Below are positions 25,286 through 56,134 of a stretch of 56,134 bases of DNA, in pieces. The number at the start of each line of letters is the position of its first letter. Within the stretch, counting starts at the first letter, position 1. The DNA is taken from assembly GCA_000995965.1 (NCBI GenBank), contig LBYD01000002.1, positions 336,563 through 392,696 of the forward strand, given 5' to 3'. The position numbers were made by a program, and so were the translations under genes. A model generated the notes under the pieces. That model worked only from the letters and a program-made list of their open reading frames with translations, was not told the DNA's origin and did no database searches. The DNA comes from Candidatus Moranbacteria bacterium GW2011_GWC2_40_12. Lineage in GTDB: Bacteria > Patescibacteriota > Minisyncoccia > Moranbacterales > UBA11712.

Positions 25286-26293
25286 TCATTTTTGGATCTT
25301 TTCGAGGTGTTTTTTGTTATTTGATCCGACAATTTTGAAATATTTCAGGACATTTTGCTTATTTTCAACCTTGATTTCTTTATTCTTACATATTCTAGGC
25401 TTTAATCCAATATTTTTCAAGATCCTGAAAACCGTATGGAGAAGTGGCGGAGATAAGCTACAAAAAGATAATTTCTGATAACGGTAAATCTTTTTATTGA
25501 CGACGTATGTATGTTTATAGACAGACCCGTCAGTATCAATAAGTCCGCGTAAGCAGGCGATTTCATATTTCTTGTTTCGTTTTATCCATATCGGAATATC
25601 GATTTTTTGTTTCACTTTATTGCCTATTTTCAACCCCATTTTTTGCGTAAGATAATCAACCAACTCCGTGCGAGATATTACAATTGTATCAGCTTTGCTT
25701 TTGGGATCCGAATATAATCCAGGAAAAACACTAAACAGGTCCGTAATCATTTTATTCACAAAACTAATATAGTCTTGATCAGTTTCGCGATTCAATGAAA
25801 TTGAAACTTGTCGCATGCTTATGCCGCCGTCTCCGAGGATAATGCCGACAAATTCTGCGAGCTTAGCGGAAAATGACGGTTTTTTTATCGGAAGTCGTTT
25901 GCTAATAATGGGATGTTGCTTGAATTTACCTTCCTTTTCCCACCATTCCCGCCATTTTCTCTTTCTAGCATTTGGATCACCTCCAATAAATTTGTATTTC
26001 TTTAAAACAGCAAGTCCGCCTTTTCGGGCGCCTTTTTTTGCGTACCAATAAGGAGAAAGCAATTCAATGTTTTTGGGAAAACTTAGATTCGCTTTTTTGC
26101 AGATAATTTTGACTATATTCAGGGGAACAGTAATCTTCTCTCTTTTCCAATCCGAAAGATTTCTTTCGCTTATTTTAAGCAATTTGGCGAGTTCACGCCA
26201 ATCTAAACCAAGCTTATTTTTTGCAGTAAAAAGAAAATCTCGTTGCTTGTTTCTGGTGAATTTGACTCTTTTAGATTTATACCTTTCAGCCAT
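25286..26293 (-). CDS. Free-standing double-motif LAGLIDADG endonuclease-like protein with an N-terminal HTH region
   Basis: FVGIILGDGGIS and CLRGLIDTDGSVYKH motifs. The N-terminus LDWRELAKLLKISERNLSDWKREK is HTH-like. The stop codon is 8 nt from tRNA-Ser. Confidence 0.8.
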   Translation of the reverse strand: MAERYKSKRVKFTRNKQRDFLFTAKNKLGLDWRELAKLLKISERNLSDWKREKITVPLNIVKIICKKANLSFPKNIELLSPYWYAKKGARKGGLAVLKKYKFIGGDPNARKRKWREWWEKEGKFKQHPIISKRLPIKKPSFSAKLAEFVGIILGDGGISMRQVSISLNRETDQDYISFVNKMITDLFSVFPGLYSDPKSKADTIVISRTELVDYLTQKMGLKIGNKVKQKIDIPIWIKRNKKYEIACLRGLIDTDGSVYKHTYVVNKKIYRYQKLSFCSLSPPLLHTVFRILKNIGLKPRICKNKEIKVENKQNVLKYFKIVGSNNKKHLEKIQK

Positions 26294-50408: not shown

Positions 50409-50654
50409 ACATACCGTTAAAATTTAATCTCAAAAAGGCAAAGTCGATCATTTGAAGCACAACAAGGGTGAACCAAAATGAAAGACGCGACTGGAATAGT
50501 TTGTAATAGAAATATTACCGATTATTCTGGTCGTGTTTTCTTTGTCCCCGCCAGATTTATCCGCCTTGGGCGGAAGCGGGCAGGTAAAATAAAACACGGT
50601 GAACTTTGACAATTGAATCCCTGCTAATTTGCCAGCATATGAATTAGTAGGGAA

Positions 50655-50935
50655 AACCCCGACGCGAGGTCGGGGTAAACAATCGCAAGTTTTTGTGGTT
50701 GTCCTGGTCCCGACGCAAGTCGGGAAAAGTGCTAAGAGTCTATTCGCCTTTTTTCTCTCCGACCTTGCGTCGGAGCAAGAAAAAAGAGTGCCCCGACATC
50801 ACGTCGGGGCTCAACAAAAAGAAATTATTTTCTTTTATATCGCAATCAGTTAAACTTCTATCAAAAAGTTTGAGGATTGCGGGGTGAGTAAAGCAATCTT
50901 CGCGATGCCCGGTCATGCGACCGGGCTCAATAAGA
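50655..50935 (+). repeat. Five related hairpins (CCCGAC-loop-GTCGGG) in the 16S leader
   Basis: ccccgac-gcgag-gtcgggg, tcccgac-gcaa-gtcggga, ctccgac-cttgc-gtcggag, gccccgac-atcac-gtcggggc, gcccggtc-atgc-gaccgggc. Confidence 0.7.
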
Positions 50936-50957
50936 ATTCGCTTCACTCATTCTTTTT

Positions 50958-50997
<40 letters not shown>

Positions 50998-51257
50998 GAT
51001 AAGGCATGCAAGTCGAGGGCCGATTTTGATCGGCCCGGCAAACGGGTTAGTAACGCATAGGAACGTACCCTCGAGTCTCGAATAATCCCTCGAAAGGGGG
51101 AATAATGCGAGATAGTTCTCTTCGGAGTAAAGATTTATCGCTTGAGGAGCGGCCTGTGTCCTATCAGCTTGTTGGCGGGGTAAAGGCCCACCAAGGCTAT
51201 GACGGGTAGGGGATGTGAGAGCATGATCCCCAACATTGGGACTGAGACACTGCCCAA

Positions 51258-51288
<31 letters not shown>

Positions 51289-51332
51289 CGGCAATGGGCG
51301 AAAGCCTGACCGAGCGACGCCGCGTGGAGGAT

Positions 51333-51363
<31 letters not shown>

Positions 51364-51373
51364 AGGGAAGAAA

Positions 51374-51776
51374 CCGTGTTCAGCACGGAGAATCCAATTA
51401 CACTCCGCCTCATCGGCGGAAACTTTAGGAATTGTGTTGAGAAAAAATGTTTTGATCTTTTTTAGGGAGGAATAAACAATGGCCGCCCAAAGTCTTGAGA
51501 TTACGGCAAAAACAGAAGAGGCTTTAGAAAAAGAAGTCAACCATCGTGTCGAGTTTGCGCCCCAAATTGGCCGTCGGGTTACTGGTGTGCAGTTTATGAA
51601 AACACTGGCTGCCGATGGGAACCACAGGGCTATACTCACGATCGAAGGAGGATGTTGCTGCTAAAAAACAATTCCCCTAAATCGATTCAAGCGAGATTGC
51701 GAACCTGCTTTCTCGCAATCTCAACTCAATTCCTAAAAAGAAAAAAGTGTAATTGACGATTCCGTGTTGGATACGG
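51374..51776 (+). other. Roughly 400-nt insertion (expansion or intervening sequence) in the V3 helix of the 16S gene
   Basis: It lies between GCAAGGGAAGAAA and CTGACGGTACCTTGC. The flanks pair as gagaatccaattacac / gtgtaattgacgattc and ctttaggaattgtgttgaga / tctcaactcaattcctaaaaag. Confidence 0.8.
51479..51664 (+). CDS. Candidate 61-aa protein encoded inside the 16S V3 insertion
   Basis: GGGAGG at 51465-51470, 8 nt before the ATG. The sequence is MAAQSLEITAKTEEALEKEVNHRVEFAPQIGRRVTGVQFMKTLAADGNHRAILTIEGGCCC. No family recognised. Confidence 0.4.
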   Translation: MAAQSLEITAKTEEALEKEVNHRVEFAPQIGRRVTGVQFMKTLAADGNHRAILTIEGGCCC

Positions 51777-52187
51777 CTGACGGTACCTTGCGAATAAGAG
51801 GTTGCTAACTCTGTGCCAGCAGCAGCGGTAATACAGAGACCTCAAGCGTTATCCGGATTTATTGGGCGTAAAGCGTGTGTAGGTGGCGATGATAGTCAGA
51901 TGTCAAATTCCAGCGCTCAACGTTGGAGCTGCATCTGAAACGTCATCACTAGAGGCAAGTAGAGGCTCATGGAACATATGGTGTAGCAGTGAAATGCGTT
52001 GATATCATATGGAACGCCAAAGGAGAAGTCAGTGAGCTGGGCTTTGCCTGACACTGAGACACGAAAGCGTGGGTAGCGAACGGGATTAGATACCCCGGTA
52101 GTCCACGCCCTAAACGTTGCCAACTAGGTCTTGGAAGTATCGACCCTTTCAGGACCGTAGCTAACGCGTTAAGTTGGCCGCCTGGGA

Positions 52188-52219
<32 letters not shown>

Positions 52220-52341
52220 AGACGGGGACCCGCACAAGCGGTGGAGCACGCGGTTCAATTCGTCAACAAGCGAGGAACCTCACCAGGGCTTGAAATCCTA
52301 CTGCAAATCCCGAGAAATCGGGACTTCTTCGAGAGTGTAGG

Positions 52342-52372
<31 letters not shown>

Positions 52373-52599
52373 CCGTGAGGTGTTCCGTTAAGTCGGGAAA
52401 CGAGCGCAACCCCTGTCGAGTGTTACTTATGTCACTCGAGACTGCCCAGCCCAGAGTTTTCGAATCATCGAAAATTTCGGGCTGGGAGGAAGGTGGGGAT
52501 GACGTCAAATCAGCATGGCCCTCTGACGCCCTGGGCGACACGCATGCTACAATGGCCGGTACAATGGGTTGCCAAACCGCGAGGTGGAGCCAATCCCAT

Positions 52600-52647
<48 letters not shown>

Positions 52648-52798
52648 CCGGAATCGCTAGTAATCGTGAATCAGCCATGTCACGGTGAATACGTTCTCGG
52701 GTCTTGTACTCACCGCCCGTCACACCAAGAGAGTCGGTAATACCCAAAGTGCCACGCAAGTGGTCCTACGGTAGGATCGATAATAAGGGTGAAGTCGT

Positions 52799-53566
52799 AA
52801 ATTTGTTGCGACCTCAAAGAGCAATCTTTGAGAAAAACCTGACTATATGCTGGAAACCCTGTGTATCTTGTGCTACTCATGATAATATATTTATATGAGT
52901 GAAAAAGCTTCAAGTGCAGGCAATCAGCAGGGAAGAGCATCTTTCGCAAGAAAGGGAAAACTCCCCTCAGAGACTACACGTCAGGCGCCTTTCTCTGAAA
53001 AAGAAATAAAGGCTTATCTTTTAGGTGCATTGCACGATGCAACTTTCAGCAGCAATCGAAGATTTCGGTTTTCTCAAAAGGGAACCGGATGGTTGAAATT
53101 TCTTCAAATGCTGTTTAGAAGAATTGGTTATAAATCTTGGGTTTATAAGGAAGGTAAAACCAGATCCGTATATGTTCTTGAAACTTTAGCGAAATTCTTG
53201 GATTTTGAGTTTAATCCTTTGAATCTGAAGTCAAGACAAGAAAAGATCGGATACATTCGAGGTTTTTTCGATGCCGAAGGTGGCATTCCAAAAAACGGAA
53301 AAAGGTTTTACATTCAACTAGTGCAATCAAACAAGAAAAAACTTCAGCAAATCAAGAAAGTCTTGAAAAATCTGGAAATCGAAACAGGAAAAATACACAA
53401 TCCAAGCTACAGGGTGGATCCTAAATATTGGAGAATGTATGTCCCTGCAAATTACCAGAAAAAATTTGCTAAAGTGATAAATTCTTGGCATCCGAAAAAG
53501 ACAAAAGTATTCAGAGAGAGGATGATGATATAGTCCATGCCTTATAGCGATATAGGGAGAAACATG
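52799..53566 (+). mobile_element. Intron-like insertion (group I-like boundaries) in the 16S 3' domain, carrying a LAGLIDADG ORF
   Basis: It splits the universal GTCGTAACAAGG. With the boundary set as GTCGT|aaattt...acatg|AACAAGG, the 5' exon ends in U and the insert ends in G. Confidence 0.65.
52895..53533 (+). CDS. LAGLIDADG homing endonuclease (double motif)
   Basis: YLLGALHDATFS and IRGFFDAEGGIP motifs. 212 aa, located inside the 16S insertion. Confidence 0.85.
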   Translation: MSEKASSAGNQQGRASFARKGKLPSETTRQAPFSEKEIKAYLLGALHDATFSSNRRFRFSQKGTGWLKFLQMLFRRIGYKSWVYKEGKTRSVYVLETLAKFLDFEFNPLNLKSRQEKIGYIRGFFDAEGGIPKNGKRFYIQLVQSNKKKLQQIKKVLKNLEIETGKIHNPSYRVDPKYWRMYVPANYQKKFAKVINSWHPKKTKVFRERMMI

Positions 53567-53604
53567 AACAAGGCATCCGTAGCGGAAGCTGTGGATGGAT
53601 CACC

Positions 53605-53668
53605 TCCTTTCTAGGGAGATACGGTTGAGAACTCCGATTTATCGGAGTATAAAACCCATATGGTCGTT
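53605..53668 (+). repeat. Direct repeat copy 1 (last 8 nt of the 16S gene plus the start of the spacer)
   Basis: tcctttctagggagat-acggttgagaactccgatttatcggagtataaaacccatatggtcgtt. Weaker similarity continues to about 53764. Confidence 0.8.
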
Positions 53669-53769
53669 CGTCCCGATTTATCGGGATGACAAAATAGATT
53701 TTTTAGCTAGTATAAGGCTATTTATTTAGCTTTATGCACAGGGCAACCACAAAAGTTTGCAAAAAAAAG

Positions 53770-53792
53770 ACAGGGATAAAACCCTGTTTTTG
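53770..53792 (+). terminator. Intrinsic terminator downstream of the 16S gene
   Basis: acaggg-ataaaa-ccctgt followed by TTTTT. Confidence 0.65.
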
Positions 53793-53847
53793 CGTTATCA
53801 ACCAGGAAATGGGTCATTTCAAGGGAGATATTTAGAGTCTGCTCCGC

Positions 53848-53876
53848 TTGACATCAGGCTTCGTCTATCTTATCCT
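53848..53876 (+). promoter_or_regulatory. Candidate promoter of the two-gene cassette
   Basis: TTGACA, a 17-nt spacer, then TATCCT. Confidence 0.4.
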
Positions 53877-53930
53877 GCTTTGAAAGCTAAATAGCTTTTA
53901 TTTACCAACTATTTCAGGAGGTGAGGGCAA

Positions 53931-54146
53931 ATGAACCCCATACAAAAATTTTTATGGACTGTAGGCTTGTTGATTTTGGCTCTTATCCCAACCTGGTTTT
54001 TTCTGGGGTTTCGCAGCTTGCTCGCACCCTCAGGATTTTTCCAGAACCTCTTCGTTTTTGGGCTGGGTTTCTATTTCCTCGGTGTGATACAATTAATCCT
54101 GCTCATTATTTGGCTCATCTTTGCATTTCACATTTGCACTGATTAA
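53931..54146 (+). CDS. Small two-TM membrane protein (cassette gene 1)
   Basis: AGGAGG lies 7 nt upstream. The sequence is MNPIQKFLWTVGLLILALIPTWFFLGF...GLGFYFLGVIQLILLIIWLIFAF. Confidence 0.55.
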   Translation: MNPIQKFLWTVGLLILALIPTWFFLGFRSLLAPSGFFQNLFVFGLGFYFLGVIQLILLIIWLIFAFHICTD

Positions 54147-54167
54147 AGAAATGTCTCAGGAGGACAG

Positions 54168-54530
54168 ATGCCAGATAAAATCGTGACTGTGGAAAAGGAC
54201 GGTGAGACATATCTCATCAAAAATTTGGAACACAGACTGGAGCCGAAATTTTTGGCTCGTAATCCCAAAGACGGAGAATTGTTCCTGCTATTGGGGGATA
54301 ATGGAACTTATGCTCTTTTTAAGGGAACCGAAAAGAAAGGTCTAAGGATTTGCTCTCCTAAACACGTTCAGCTCTTTGGCGATTGCTTCGCCTTTATGTT
54401 CGAGCAGGACGGAAGAGTTGGAGAAATAACAGACCCTGACGACCTGGACAGCGGAAGGAAGCCCATTTTTAATGATTTCGGAAGGGGAATGAAAAAACTG
54501 GACGTTCTGCCGCATAAGGTGGTTAAGTAA
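54168..54530 (+). CDS. Hypothetical soluble 120-aa protein (cassette gene 2)
   Basis: AGGAGG lies 5 nt upstream. No motif recognised. Followed by the hairpin aaagcac...gtgcttt plus a T tract (54558-54596). Confidence 0.55.
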   Translation: MPDKIVTVEKDGETYLIKNLEHRLEPKFLARNPKDGELFLLLGDNGTYALFKGTEKKGLRICSPKHVQLFGDCFAFMFEQDGRVGEITDPDDLDSGRKPIFNDFGRGMKKLDVLPHKVVK

Positions 54531-54608
54531 TCTTGATTAACAGGGGGATGAAAACTTAAAGCACTGGGAGCCTCGGCTTTCGGTGCTTTTTCTTTTTCAG
54601 AAAGAATT

Positions 54609-54709
54609 TCCTTTCTAGGGAGATATTTATCCCGTAGTAAAGCATCAGCTTTTACTACTGGGACGGTTGAGAACTCCGATTTATCGGAGTATAAACCCAC
54701 ACGGTCGTT
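54609..54709 (+). repeat. Direct repeat copy 2 (contains an extra 38-nt hairpin)
   Basis: tcctttctagggagat[atttatcccgtagtaaagcatcagcttttactactggg]acggttgagaactccgatttatcggagtataaacccacacggtcgtt. Similarity continues to about 54748 (gcatcaggacaaccgcaaaaacttgtaa against gcacagggcaaccacaaaagtttgcaa). Confidence 0.8.
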
Positions 54710-54821
54710 AATAGACCTTAGCATCAGGACAACCGCAAAAACTTGTAATAAATAAGCCAAAAAATAGACTTTCTATAAATGGCTCTATCATAGAAACTGC
54801 AGTTATTTAGCTGTAGTTTTT

Positions 54822-55763
54822 ATGTTCGAAAAAACCGAAAAAACCTCCCTAGAAGCGAGTGCGTTCCAGGGAGTAGCCCAAAATGAGGCAAAAAACATGA
54901 GTGAGCGGATCGAAGACTTTCTAGAGTATTCGCGCTACGAATTAAACTTCTCGCCGGTAACGATCATAAAATATCGTGATTCTTTGCGAAGCATGATAAA
55001 AGATTTGGGGGATAAGTCGGTGGAACAATACGAAGTTCAAGAGTTTGTGAAAATGAAGCGTTTAATGATGGACAGGGGATTGAGCGAAGCAAGAATATCA
55101 GGCGTGGTTTATGCGGTGAGAAGTTTTTTGCTATATTGCAAAAGTTTTTTGAAGCTTGAAGTTTTGGAACCCAAACAAATACGTCCGCCGAAAAGATTTA
55201 AGCGAGAGGTAATATTTCTCACGAAAGAGGAAATCGAAGCTTTTATAAATACAATCAATATAAAAAGATGGAATGGTTTGCGATTTAGGACACTGGTTGA
55301 GGTTCTTTTAGGAACAGGGATGAGAATAGGGGAAGTTTTATCACTAAATCGCAAAACTATCATCTGGGAAAAAAGGGAAGCGAAAATTATTGGCAAAGGC
55401 AATAAAGAAAGAACGGTCTTTTTCACGAAAAGATCGCTTGAATGGATCACCAAGTATCTCGAGAGGCGAAACGATACGCACGAGGCAATATTTGTAACCA
55501 AGGCGCCAATCAACCGGCTTGCAGTGGCTGACGTCTGGCGATTTTTTGATAGGCACCGGAAATTGGCAAAAATAGACAAAAAGCTCACGCCCCATATTCT
55601 TCGTCATACCGTCGCCACAAATTTAGTTTTCAATGGTTGCCCAATTGTTCACGTCAAAGAGATTTTGGGTCATGAAAGGCTGGATACGACCTGCAAATAT
55701 TATCTAGGCGTGGACAAGGAGAAGGCAAAAAAGGCACATAAGCAGTTTTTGAATTTTATTTGA
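54822..55763 (+). CDS. Tyrosine recombinase (XerC/XerD / phage-integrase family)
   Basis: SAM-like N-terminal domain (FLEYSRYELNFSPVTIIKYRDSL). GTGMRIGEVLSL, HILRHTVATNL, LGHERLDTTCKYY. The true start may be Met-26 (54897). Confidence 0.85.
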   Translation: MFEKTEKTSLEASAFQGVAQNEAKNMSERIEDFLEYSRYELNFSPVTIIKYRDSLRSMIKDLGDKSVEQYEVQEFVKMKRLMMDRGLSEARISGVVYAVRSFLLYCKSFLKLEVLEPKQIRPPKRFKREVIFLTKEEIEAFINTINIKRWNGLRFRTLVEVLLGTGMRIGEVLSLNRKTIIWEKREAKIIGKGNKERTVFFTKRSLEWITKYLERRNDTHEAIFVTKAPINRLAVADVWRFFDRHRKLAKIDKKLTPHILRHTVATNLVFNGCPIVHVKEILGHERLDTTCKYYLGVDKEKAKKAHKQFLNFI

Positions 55764-56134
55764 CATACTTGATTATCGAAAGATGTTTAGAATTATTTTT
55801 CCAATCAAAAACTTCGGCATAAAACCGAAGTTCTTGGGCGGGTACACCTGTTAGCCGAAATCGGTTCAGTACTAGAAACCTTCTAGTAAAGACTTCAGAC
55901 GAGTCTCAGCATGAATTTGCCAGTCCCCAGCAAAGTGGGTCGCCCCGACACAATCGCAGTGGGTCAGACAAGCTGGCGCTGCTTCAGGGCTGTCGATAAT
56001 GATCAGCCTTGCCGATATCATTTAATATTATTTTAGGAGCTTGTCTAGAACAGCATAGGGATTTATGCTAATTCTATGACCGCTAGATTGATTAAAAACT
56101 CTAAACTAACGAATCGTCAAATTAACAAATTAAT

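Follow-up and report, generated by a model that had tools for sequence, protein, structure and literature searches.

A probable tandem array of site-specific integrative units at the 3′ end of the 16S rRNA gene in a Candidatus Moranbacteria genome

Our analysis indicates that the sequence repeated downstream of the 16S rRNA gene in this CPR bacterium, labelled Candidatus Moranbacteria in NCBI, probably marks att-type junctions, one after another, between site-specific integrative units arranged in tandem. The window, i.e., the whole 56,134-nt stretch of DNA that was analysed, holds two repeat copies. On longer public contigs of this genome, these two open a series of at least 12 full copies, and the resulting array of approximately 28 kb spans from the 16S 3′ end to a lexA/umuD-like gene; between these landmarks, copies of the motif complementary to the 16S leader number 14. 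An earlier note on this DNA had read the window as integrative elements standing in tandem, with the 16S 3′ end as their attB, and had proposed that extension of the contig would reveal a further repeat. The extended contigs and related genomes display this layout, and a third copy was found at L001 16829–16899; across its 71 nt, which contain GACCACCTCCTTTCT, it has 99% identity to copy 1. A single 16S gene was seen on these contigs.

The 16S rRNA gene is located on the forward strand at 50952–53612 (Rfam SSU match, 1332 bits). It contains an insertion of approximately 350 nt (51401–51749) and a group I intron (52801–53566; Rfam Intron_gpI match, 63.7 bits), inside which lies a LAGLIDADG ORF (52895–53533; PF14528 match). 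Rfam forced the end of the 16S model to 52845, and the real 3′ exon is downstream of the intron: alignment to the 16S genes of two relatives, L011 and L016, placed its boundaries at 53567–53612. This exon is 100% identical to those of relatives, and the gene is intact. Since the true 3′ exon ends at 53612, the repeat takes in the last 8 nt of the 16S gene, in agreement with the earlier note. The reported absence of a 23S gene or spacer tRNA also held, as neither was found in the remainder of the window 3′ of the 16S gene, and a permissive Rfam scan of 50500–56134 detected only the 16S gene and its intron. Contigs found via the upstream 143-aa protein nearly all break within the 16S gene.

The duplication of the 16S terminus and adjoining spacer is exact over two blocks: TCCTTTCTAGGGAGAT occurs at 53605–53620 and 54609–54624 (16/16), and ACGGTTGAGAACTCCGATTTATCGGAGTATAAA at 53621–53653 and 54663–54695 (33/33), with 0 repeat matches in the shuffled-sequence control. 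The weaker similarity that had been claimed beyond these blocks is also real, comprising CCCAyAyGGTCGTT (53655–53668 and 54696–54709) and CAGGrCAACCrCAAAAryTTGy (53739–53760 and 54725–54746). Core copy 1, an attL-type junction located by exact matches at 53601–53620 on the forward strand, reads CACCTCC TTTCTAG GGAGAT. The anti-Shine-Dalgarno end of the 16S gene supplies its left half, the right half falls immediately beyond the gene, and the two halves form an imperfect inverted repeat flanking TTTCTAG. Core copy 2, at the junction of units A and B (54609–54624, forward strand), consists of TCCTTTCTAGGGAGAT without the CACC of the 16S gene. A partial third core-like copy at 53814–53834 matches copy 2 at 19 of 21 positions. 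The additional 38-nt hairpin described for copy 2, ATTTATCCCGTAG...CTACTGGG, was located at 54625–54662 on the same strand. Within the window pair it is confined to copy 2; it is an optional module that follows four island cores, with variable loops. An assembly artefact, whether collapse or expansion, was considered and rejected, since at least 10 independent assemblies (ENA, JGI and NCBI) agree exactly in the duplicated sequence; contigs of different samples from these sources are 99.99–100% identical in this region. The source metagenomes are from groundwater and include those behind ERZ27254729 and JGI 3300025152.

The sequence following each core forms a putative surrogate 16S trailer. 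That of unit A (53621–53760, forward strand) has two hairpins, i.e., hairpin 1 (approximately 53628–53650) and an additional CCGATTTATCGG hairpin, together with a CCCATATGGTCGTT box (53655–53668) and a leader-complement (53739–53760). The trailer of unit B (54663–54746, forward strand) includes hairpin 1, a CCCACACGGTCGTT box (54696–54709) and the leader-complement CAGGACAACCGCAAAAACTTGT (54725–54746), in which 22 of 22 positions are able to pair. Hairpin 1 is retained as a structure across at least four unrelated sequences. The motif GCAAGTTTTTGTGGTTGTCCTG in the 16S 5′ leader (50685–50706, forward strand) complements the 22-nt motif of every trailer copy, with Watson–Crick and G–U pairs counted. 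The nine full copies examined directly each had 21–22 pairing positions of 22, and the remaining three of the 12 full copies contain the same motif, while the best score in background windows averaged 16.2. Duplex energies were −60 to −68 kcal/mol, compared with −41 to −47 kcal/mol for shuffles, and all five internal sequence variants among the leader-complement copies preserve pairing. In L016, both strands are co-changed (leader ..GGTTAGTCCTA, trailer TAGGACTAACC..), giving a 24-nt helix with co-changed bases and a matched one-base insertion; the covariation evidence is drawn from three leaders. A helix between the 16S leader and trailer is typically cleaved by RNase III. The long complementarity, with compensatory change in L016 and a 22-bp helix in the window genome, indicates that the “spacer” portion of the repeat is the predicted 3′ strand of this processing helix.

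The terminator, TTGACA promoter and two ORFs previously described between the copies were all located, at 53769–54530 on the forward strand. A predicted terminator hairpin followed by a T-run (53769–53791; scan stem 53770–53787) would end transcription of the 16S gene and trailer, and an identical copy is present at L001 18469–18494. The cassette promoter module (53814–53876) comprises the degenerate core-like TCATTTCAAGGGAGATATTTA, then GAGTCTGCTCCGC, TTGACA and TATCCT. Its promoter-like site, TTGACA-17-TATCCT (53848–53876, with TTGACA at 53848–53853), scored 10/12 in the promoter scan, and further copies of the module lie at L001 17053 and 20303 and at composite island positions 25993, 29824 and 34869. 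The cargo consists of a 71-aa ORF (53931–54146), apparently encoding a small hydrophobic membrane protein, and a 120-aa ORF (54168–54530). Neither protein had a match in Pfam, NCBIfam, PADLOC or PHROG; in the contig collection, 61 index blocks list the exact 120-aa protein. Unit A ends in a terminator with a 14-pair stem and T-run (approximately 54558–54599, forward strand).

The tyrosine recombinase gene expected directly after copy 2, here termed int1, was identified at 54822–55763 on the forward strand (PF00589, 8.5e-39; phrog_1, integrase). Its product has 313 aa if translation starts at a conserved upstream ATG (54822) and 288 aa if it starts at 54897. Inspection by eye shows the full catalytic set of six residues (R, K, H, R, H, Y), and a terminator follows at 55810–55832. 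The start of int1 is approximately 200–275 nt past core copy 2, and the recombinase therefore adjoins a junction. Besides a rolling-circle Rep (PF23343, phrog_3419), unit B encodes two tyrosine recombinases, both complete; the second, int2, is located 4 kb from int1. An IS1595-family insertion sequence lies inside unit B; the element, which has a PF12762 transposase, was traced through L001 11861–12594, and its left end occupies 56028–56134 on the forward strand, with the target-site duplication TTATTTTA at 56028–56035 and the left inverted repeat GGAGCTTGTCTAGAAC from 56036.

Across the array, each repeat copy contains the core (CACC)TCCTTTCTAGGGAGAT, the hairpin and the 22-nt leader complement, and usually also a terminator and a promoter for 1–3 cargo genes. 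The small units have a common plan of core, trailer, terminator, promoter, ORF and terminator. The first unit is integrase-less, as the earlier note had stated; however, its description as a satellite or remnant undersells this regular plan. Small units end in a terminator and then TTTCTAGGGAGAT, without the CACCTCC half-site; a tyrosine recombinase might not be able to use such junctions, a point against the integrative-unit reading. Comparison of the other unnamed cargo ORFs (122, 223, 262, 108 and 81 aa) with Pfam and PADLOC gave no match, nor did PHROG for those of 122, 223, 262 and 81 aa. In the array, only unit B and a duplicated distal int1 copy carry a recombinase. A 3.1-kb A–int1–IS block is present in two copies, which differ over 3,166 nt by 9 mismatches and 6 gap openings. 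The simpler reading is that the second copy lies approximately 25 kb downstream in the same genome, a distal placement inferred from the assembly graph through contig overlaps of 100% identity. Either a second integrated copy or a circle junction would account for the G|A junction of L006 and L009. Assignment of these two contigs to another strain was dropped, since positions 1–3887 of L006 coincide with the distal part of this array, as read in L190, at 100% identity.

Related genomes connect the recombinase with the core. Eight loci were fetched by the int1 protein alone (69–95% identical), and CTCCTTTCTAGGGAG was found approximately 230–375 nt upstream of the 288-aa start in seven of them, the eighth lacking the upstream sequence. 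Four of these seven cores are true 16S ends, and three have no 16S gene nearby. Among the first 80 loci fetched by the core, 14 contained a forward int1 homologue (48–77% identical) 209–365 nt downstream of the core end. In L011, a 6.3-kb element (int1 ... rolling-circle Rep, int2) lies between exact repeats of 49 nt and 55 nt; the repeats span 104–105 nt, differ by one inserted base, and contain the last 14 nt of the 16S gene, including ATCACCTCCTTTCT of that gene. In both the window and L011, direct repeats contain the 16S 3′ end, and the 16S gene is intact. The left and right junctions of L119 have only the 25-nt core CACCTCCTTTCTAGGGAGATACGGT in common and their flanks differ; judged from sequence, this is the pattern of a crossover site and not of plain duplication. 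At junctions away from 16S genes, a conserved element-end motif, TTTTGCGrAAArTCCGT, is found just upstream of CACCTCC. The idea that element right ends are decayed copies of 16S helix 45 was rejected, the ungapped identity being 7.7/30 versus 7.2 at random.

Unit occupancy varies among the related genomes. Cassette A is absent from five loci (L011, L119, L015, L012 and L016), in which int1 directly follows the 16S gene, and unit content differs, with about four units in L011 versus at least 12 here. No fully empty site was found, as every 16S end seen of the lineage carries at least int1. In L016, L017, L019 and L013, one core only was seen within ±10 kb, with the ends of any element undefined; at these loci, int1 may be a permanent neighbour of the site, a point against the integrative-unit reading. 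Identity of the int1 product is 76% in a genome with a 16S gene of only approximately 81% identity, and 69% in the 5.5-Mb Syntrophorhabdaceae chromosome OY762209.1, which holds L019. These identities, set against host 16S divergence, are signs of horizontal spread. The neighbours in homologous loci are anti-phage defence genes.

We propose that the anti-Shine-Dalgarno end and the GGGAG past the gene would serve as inverted half-sites of the core CACCTCC-TTTCTAG-GGAGAT, with an overlap of approximately 7 bp. The symmetry of the core is directly visible, and inverted half-sites around a short overlap are typical of tyrosine-recombinase core sites. The recombinase would bind at the core, and element-borne int1, perhaps with int2, would recombine the core of the element with the 16S end. 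Integration would rebuild the 16S 3′ end, and an intact gene with flanking repeats was observed. Because integration would displace the sequence after the 16S gene, each unit would bring a substitute trailer, consisting of a hairpin, the conserved GGTCGTT box and the 22-nt 3′ helix strand, usually followed by a terminator. This element-borne trailer, for which complementarity was observed in 12 full copies, would keep pre-16S processing working. Repeated integration at existing cores would grow the array, and the 1–5-kb cargo units, each equipped with a promoter-like site and a terminator, would be mobilized in trans or travel as passengers. Homologous recombination between the 100–250-nt repeats would reshuffle units, as suggested by the trailer copies, which are mosaics of few variants, and by the 3.1-kb duplication. 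Neither an excised circle nor an element-free 16S end was found among the contigs examined; thus, recombination itself is inferred rather than observed.

Small, mostly single-function cassettes beside a tyrosine recombinase and a primary site are also characteristic of integrons, and int1 with its adjoining core could be a resident capture site like intI/attI, anchored at the rRNA gene, with the small units being true cassettes inserted singly. Most units are 0.9–2.1 kb with 1–3 ORFs, a regular plan and no recombinase; cassette A separates the 16S gene from int1 here and is missing in relatives where int1 abuts the 16S gene; and only 2–3 recombinase genes are present for at least 12 units. However, int1 is not of the IntI type, scoring far below the cut-offs of the integron-integrase models (TIGR02249, 82.5 versus 265 bits; NF011946, 45.7 versus 435 bits). 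The unit boundaries are direct copies of the primary site and trailer and not imperfect palindromes of the attC type, and the cassettes have their own promoter-like sites and terminators, whereas integron cassettes are mostly promoterless and expressed from Pc. Moreover, int1 is co-directional with the cassettes, has units on both sides, and in L011 is itself inside a unit flanked by the 49-nt and 55-nt exact blocks. We consider such a platform unlikely and favor an array of integrative units.

A second explanation is that homologous recombination or replication slippage duplicated the native trailer, the recombinase being an unrelated neighbour and the cargo having come by other routes. The mosaic trailers show that ordinary homologous recombination acts here and could explain some rearrangements without an integrase; the almost perfect duplication of the 3.1-kb block and a repeat length of 100–250 nt, sufficient for RecA-type recombination, agree with this explanation. 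In contrast, it leaves unexplained the constant 209–375-nt spacing of int1 homologues to a 15–19-nt core across phyla and unrelated contexts, the L119 junctions that share only the 25-nt core, and the TTTTGCGrAAArTCCGT motif at non-16S junctions, and it appears very improbable as an account of the array. The further suggestion, raised in the earlier note, that int1 is the chromosomal Xer dimer-resolution recombinase, merely adjoining the 16S gene and the unrelated repeats, can practically be dismissed: its best NCBIfam matches are XerA, XerC and XerD, JGI labels homologues “XerD”, and int1 is highly conserved (1395 homologues; at least 72% identity among the top 120 matches), but every Xer equivalog score is below its cut-off (XerA, 184.7/220; XerC, 167.6/335; XerD, 159.9/330 bits), int1 is present twice in the island with a second integrase nearby, the core is unlike the consensus of dif, the single site near the replication terminus at which such enzymes act (compared by eye), and int1 travels with the core across lineages, is found among defence-gene cargo in non-CPR genomes, and is conserved beyond the 16S-defined host lineages.

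An array of integrative units has counterparts among known systems. As in the islands and prophages at tRNA/tmRNA 3′ ends (Islander/TIGER class), a tyrosine recombinase adjoins one junction, and direct repeats hold the 3′ end of a stable-RNA gene, which the element restores in those islands and would restore here; presence of such islands varies among relatives, as does unit content here. In contrast to these islands, the target here is the 16S gene, whose anti-Shine-Dalgarno tail is half of the core, and the element would also replace a trailer of about 110–150 nt including a processing-helix strand, for which tRNA-targeting elements need no counterpart. Tandem accretion is known from CIMEs (cis-mobilizable elements) beside streptococcal ICEs and from tycheposon arrays at Prochlorococcus tRNA genes. 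There, as here, many att-delimited units stand in tandem at one RNA-gene site, most of them integrase-less with cargo, and a few integrase-bearing units could move them; the present array differs in its rRNA-gene site, its conserved trailer/terminator/promoter backbone and its small-genome CPR host. In these terms, the array would be integration of the tRNA/tmRNA type with tandem accretion, at the 16S end instead. Among eukaryotic rDNA elements, the R1/R2 retrotransposons and Pokey interrupt 28S genes in multicopy rDNA. They likewise exploit conserved rRNA gene sequence as a safe, universal target, but are retrotransposons or DNA transposons, whereas here a tyrosine recombinase would insert at the 16S end and keep the gene intact. 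Full-text searches of one library of papers turned up no account of a 16S 3′ end serving as attB.

A broader reading can be offered tentatively. The universally conserved anti-Shine-Dalgarno 16S end may be the natural landing site of a widespread family of tyrosine recombinases, and the array may represent an rRNA-anchored cassette-capture platform of CPR bacteria, in which each unit would have to carry a working surrogate 3′ processing signal and the cassettes may take advantage of rRNA read-through or guard against it. Few bacterial sequences are more conserved than the 16S 3′ end; for a recombinase family with this attB, many and perhaps most bacteria would offer a potential target, with a bearing on natural host range and possible use as a tool for uncultivated or genetically intractable bacteria. 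If true, this would be a third natural gene-capture array, beside integrons and tRNA-site accretion islands, and would place a new constraint on mobile elements, in that the displaced rRNA trailer, including the processing-helix strand, must be replaced. CPR genomes are about 1 Mb, and an island of approximately 28 kb at the only 16S gene seen would be a large share of the accessory genome. Such islands may also contribute to the breaking of contigs at the 16S gene that affects CPR metagenome-assembled genomes, and could be one way in which 16S and 23S genes come apart.

Viral contigs were also surveyed. No close relative emerged when these contigs were scanned with int1 and Rep; one small contig, L200, bears a Rep but neither a core nor an integrase. 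Exact 15-nt core matches in viral contigs numbered 37, which is about the chance level. The relevant ones are L041 and L056, both 16S ends, and L070, in which an integrase with 43% identity adjoins the core.

The proposal in the earlier note of tandem integrative elements at the 3′ end of the 16S gene is supported by a 12-copy array, by the element boundaries in L011 (a relative) and L119 (a further comparison locus), and by the link between the recombinase and the core, a short repeated sequence straddling the 16S 3′ terminus. We consider it likely that site-specific integration took place here in tandem, and that the duplication in the window comprises an attL-type junction and the junction between units A and B. 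The claimed duplication at the 16S end is real: the 16-nt TCCTTTCTAGGGAGAT occurs exactly at 53605-53620 and 54609-54624, and the 33-mer ACGGTTGAGAACTCCGATTTATCGGAGTATAAA exactly at 53621-53653 and 54663-54695; shuffled sequence gave no repeat matches. The extra 38-nt hairpin of copy 2 was located at 54625-54662, and the weaker similarity beyond the repeats continues through CCCAyAyGGTCGTT and the 22-nt motif CAGGrCAACCrCAAAAryTTGy. The terminator, the TTGACA promoter (a promoter-like TTGACA-17-TATCCT site) and the 71-aa and 120-aa ORFs described between the copies (unit A) are all present, as is the tyrosine recombinase gene after copy 2 (int1); a second terminator precedes copy 2. An assembly artefact was rejected, since the ENA, JGI and NCBI contigs are 99.99-100% identical across the duplicated region. 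The 12-mer CCGATTTATCGG, itself a small hairpin, occurs three times in the duplicated region (53634-53645, 53673-53684 and 54676-54687), and a GATTTATCG-type loop is also found in hairpins of other repeat copies, such as TCCCGATTTATCGGGA in copy 4.

The exact 120-aa protein, used as a query, retrieved L001, a 482-kb contig of the same genome (window position = L001 position + 44167), and a composite of the array was stitched from L001 and further contigs through 100%-identical overlaps. This extension yielded the further repeat copies that the earlier reading called for. From the 16S end to a lexA/umuD-like gene ~28 kb downstream there are 12 occurrences of the core TTTCTAGGGAG(AT) with trailer-like sequence 3′ of it, and 14 of the 22-nt motif; the two copies in the window are the beginning of a long array. 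Unit A (71 aa and 120 aa) is followed by unit B, which contains int1, an IS1595-family insertion sequence (IS), proteins of 122 and 223 aa, a rolling-circle Rep (PF23343, phrog_3419), int2, which is a second complete tyrosine recombinase, and a 114-aa protein. Next in order are 262 aa; a HAD hydrolase; 108 + 81 aa; 92 + 161 + 84 aa; 249 aa; 197 aa; a sigma-70-like group; Fic; a DUF4325 unit; and a 5-kb unit with a GTPase, DUF998, nucleotidyltransferase/HEPN and DUF4145. The last unit is a second, near-identical A-int1-IS copy adjoining the lexA/umuD-like gene and a Y-family polymerase. CACCTCC, the anti-Shine-Dalgarno tail, immediately precedes the core at five junctions (four internal ones besides the real 16S end), and the remaining junctions have only TTTCTAGGGAGAT, directly after the terminator of the preceding unit.

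The second A-int1-IS copy (L006 5936-8448 and L009 769-3934, contigs probably of the same genome) lies ~25 kb downstream of the window's copy, after the DUF4145 unit. Over 3,166 nt the two copies differ at 9 mismatches and 6 gap openings, which by eye are concentrated in the first hairpin following the core. Its distal position is an assembly-graph inference from contig overlap; either a genuine second copy or the junction of a circle would fit. Homologous recombination does occur in the array, as the mosaic trailers and the A-int1-IS duplication of 3.1 kb indicate.

Our conclusion is that the "spacer" part of the repeat supplies the 3′ strand of the 16S leader-trailer processing helix, of which each unit has its own version. 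The 22-nt motif can pair with the 16S 5′ leader strand GCAAGTTTTTGTGGTTGTCCTG (50685-50706) at 21-22 of 22 positions, including G-U, in each of nine full copies examined directly, and the other three full repeat copies have the same motif; the best pairing score of background 290-nt windows averages 16.2. Leader-trailer duplex energies were -60 to -68 kcal/mol, versus -41 to -47 for shuffled trailers. In the comparison locus L016, leader (CACAATTTTTTGTGGTTAGTCCTA) and trailer (TAGGACTAACCACAAAAGTTTGTG) have co-changed, including a matched one-base insertion. Among the 14 array copies the motif has nine distinct variants; pairing is kept in all five that vary internally, and a pair is broken in three of the four that vary near the helix ends. 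The first hairpin downstream of the core is preserved in structure by at least four unrelated sequences. Each unit probably has its own trailer because insertion at the 16S end would displace the earlier one and require a working substitute.

Unit content downstream of the 16S gene varies among relatives. In L011, whose 16S is ~93% and int1 protein 95% identical to those of the window, int1 directly follows the 16S end and cassette A is absent. Its 6.3-kb unit (int1, DpnI, small ORFs, Rep, int2 and DUF2441) is flanked by exact repeats of 49 and 55 nt; these lie in a 104-105-nt stretch that starts ATCACCTCCTTTCT and whose two copies differ by one inserted base. Two further units come next, and then ordinary genes. 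A homologous Fic cassette (79% nt identity) occupies the third place in L011 and roughly the eleventh in the window genome. The equivalent unit of L119 (8 kb) has only CACCTCCTTTCTAGGGAGATACGGT in common between its left and right junctions, and the flanks differ, which is the pattern of a crossover site and not of plain duplication. A unit of this kind also occurs in L099, at a non-16S site.

Homologues of int1 at E <= 1e-20 numbered 1395, the best 120 of which are all at least 72% identical. Eight loci were chosen by int1 protein similarity alone and then checked for the core. CTCCTTTCTAGGGAG lay ~230-375 nt upstream of the 288-aa int1 start in seven, the eighth having too little upstream sequence; the cores are real 16S ends in four (L011, L012, L015, L016), and three (L013, L017, L019) have no 16S gene within 10 kb. 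When metagenomes were scanned for cores lacking a preceding T, at least 119 loci were obtained. Among the first 80, ~35 were 16S ends of other taxa and ~45 non-16S junctions, and in 14 the end of the core is followed, 209-365 nt downstream, by a forward int1 homologue (48-77% identical). The non-16S junctions have a conserved motif in common, TTTTGCGrAAArTCCGT, immediately upstream of CACCTCC, which is a feature of the element end and not a 16S mimic. Judged from sequence, int1 travels together with the core. Its identity is 76% in a genome with a 16S only ~81% identical, and 69% in a Syntrophorhabdaceae chromosome of 5.5 Mb, which points to horizontal spread. The alternative that int1 is the sole Xer-type enzyme is very unlikely, and neither int1 nor the array could be placed with Xer systems or integrons, as int1 scored under the cut-offs of all Xer and integron-integrase models.

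We read the core as a pair of inverted half-sites (cAcCTCC and GGAGaTa) that flank TTTCTAG and straddle the mature 16S end, the usual layout of tyrosine-recombinase sites; int1, int2 or both would catalyse recombination there. The array would work like islands that target tRNA and tmRNA genes, and accretion arrays (CIMEs, tycheposons) work in the same way. In contrast to these, the target here is the anti-Shine-Dalgarno end of the 16S rRNA gene, and an rRNA processing signal would have to be replaced. The literature searched in full text contained no report of the 16S 3′ end as an integration target, although it may have been published elsewhere.

The 16S gene spans 50952-53612. The Rfam model was forced to end at 52845, short of the true 3′ end at 53612, because a group I intron (52801-53566; LAGLIDADG ORF at 52895-53533) separates the last 46 nt (exon 53567-53612, ending ...GGATCACCTCCTTTCT). 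The gene also has a ~350-nt insertion at 51401-51749. L011 has neither this insertion nor the intron; in its 16S a different insertion, of 434 nt, lies at the position corresponding to 52712/52713 and gives a borderline match to a group II intron domain. In L007 1-3266 (NCBI LBTL01000012.1), unrelated genes (ThiI, a radical SAM enzyme and a methyltransferase) are joined to 16S inside its insertion sequence, and this deposited contig is probably a chimeric assembly.

The 718-bp IS in unit B (56028-56134; L001 11861-12594) has the inverted repeats GGAGCTTGTCTAGAAC and GTTCTAGACTAACTCC and an 8-bp target duplication, TTATTTTA; several assemblies end at it. Between int1 and the IS, the + strand of a GC-rich stretch (55836-56027) folds at -73.5 kcal/mol (z = -3.6 vs shuffles); Rfam gave no match for it, and conservation does not extend to the related elements of L099 and L011. 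Three loci with int1 have a LOOT RNA (RF03000; 58-83 bits, above the gathering score) a few kb downstream of that gene (L015 4199-4294, L016 13347-13461 and L119 4167-4287, the last between int1 and Rep), with no match in the window genome. A palindrome, CTCCCTAGAA-N9-TTCCAGGGAG (54845-54873), in the 5′ part of the 313-aa int1 ORF has arms that resemble the core's right half. Homologous loci also have a palindrome here, with arms that differ from these but match each other, such as GTCGTAAA/TTCTACGAC and GCCGTAGAA/TTCTCCGGC; it may serve as an operator or form a hairpin in the mRNA.

In distant loci (L013, L012, L090, L112, L115, L121 and L144), cargo follows int1, and beyond it lies a second integrase in convergent orientation, with 44-51% identity to int2. 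The anti-phage defence gene Abi lies downstream of int1 in L013, and Bub, TIR, NACHT, a UvrD-like helicase and SMODS lie upstream of it in L013, L090 and L112. A 49-kb viral contig (IMG/VR 3300035208_000971) has an integrase 43% identical to int1 reading toward ATCACCTCCTTTCTAGGGAG at the contig end, which hints that some phages use the same site.
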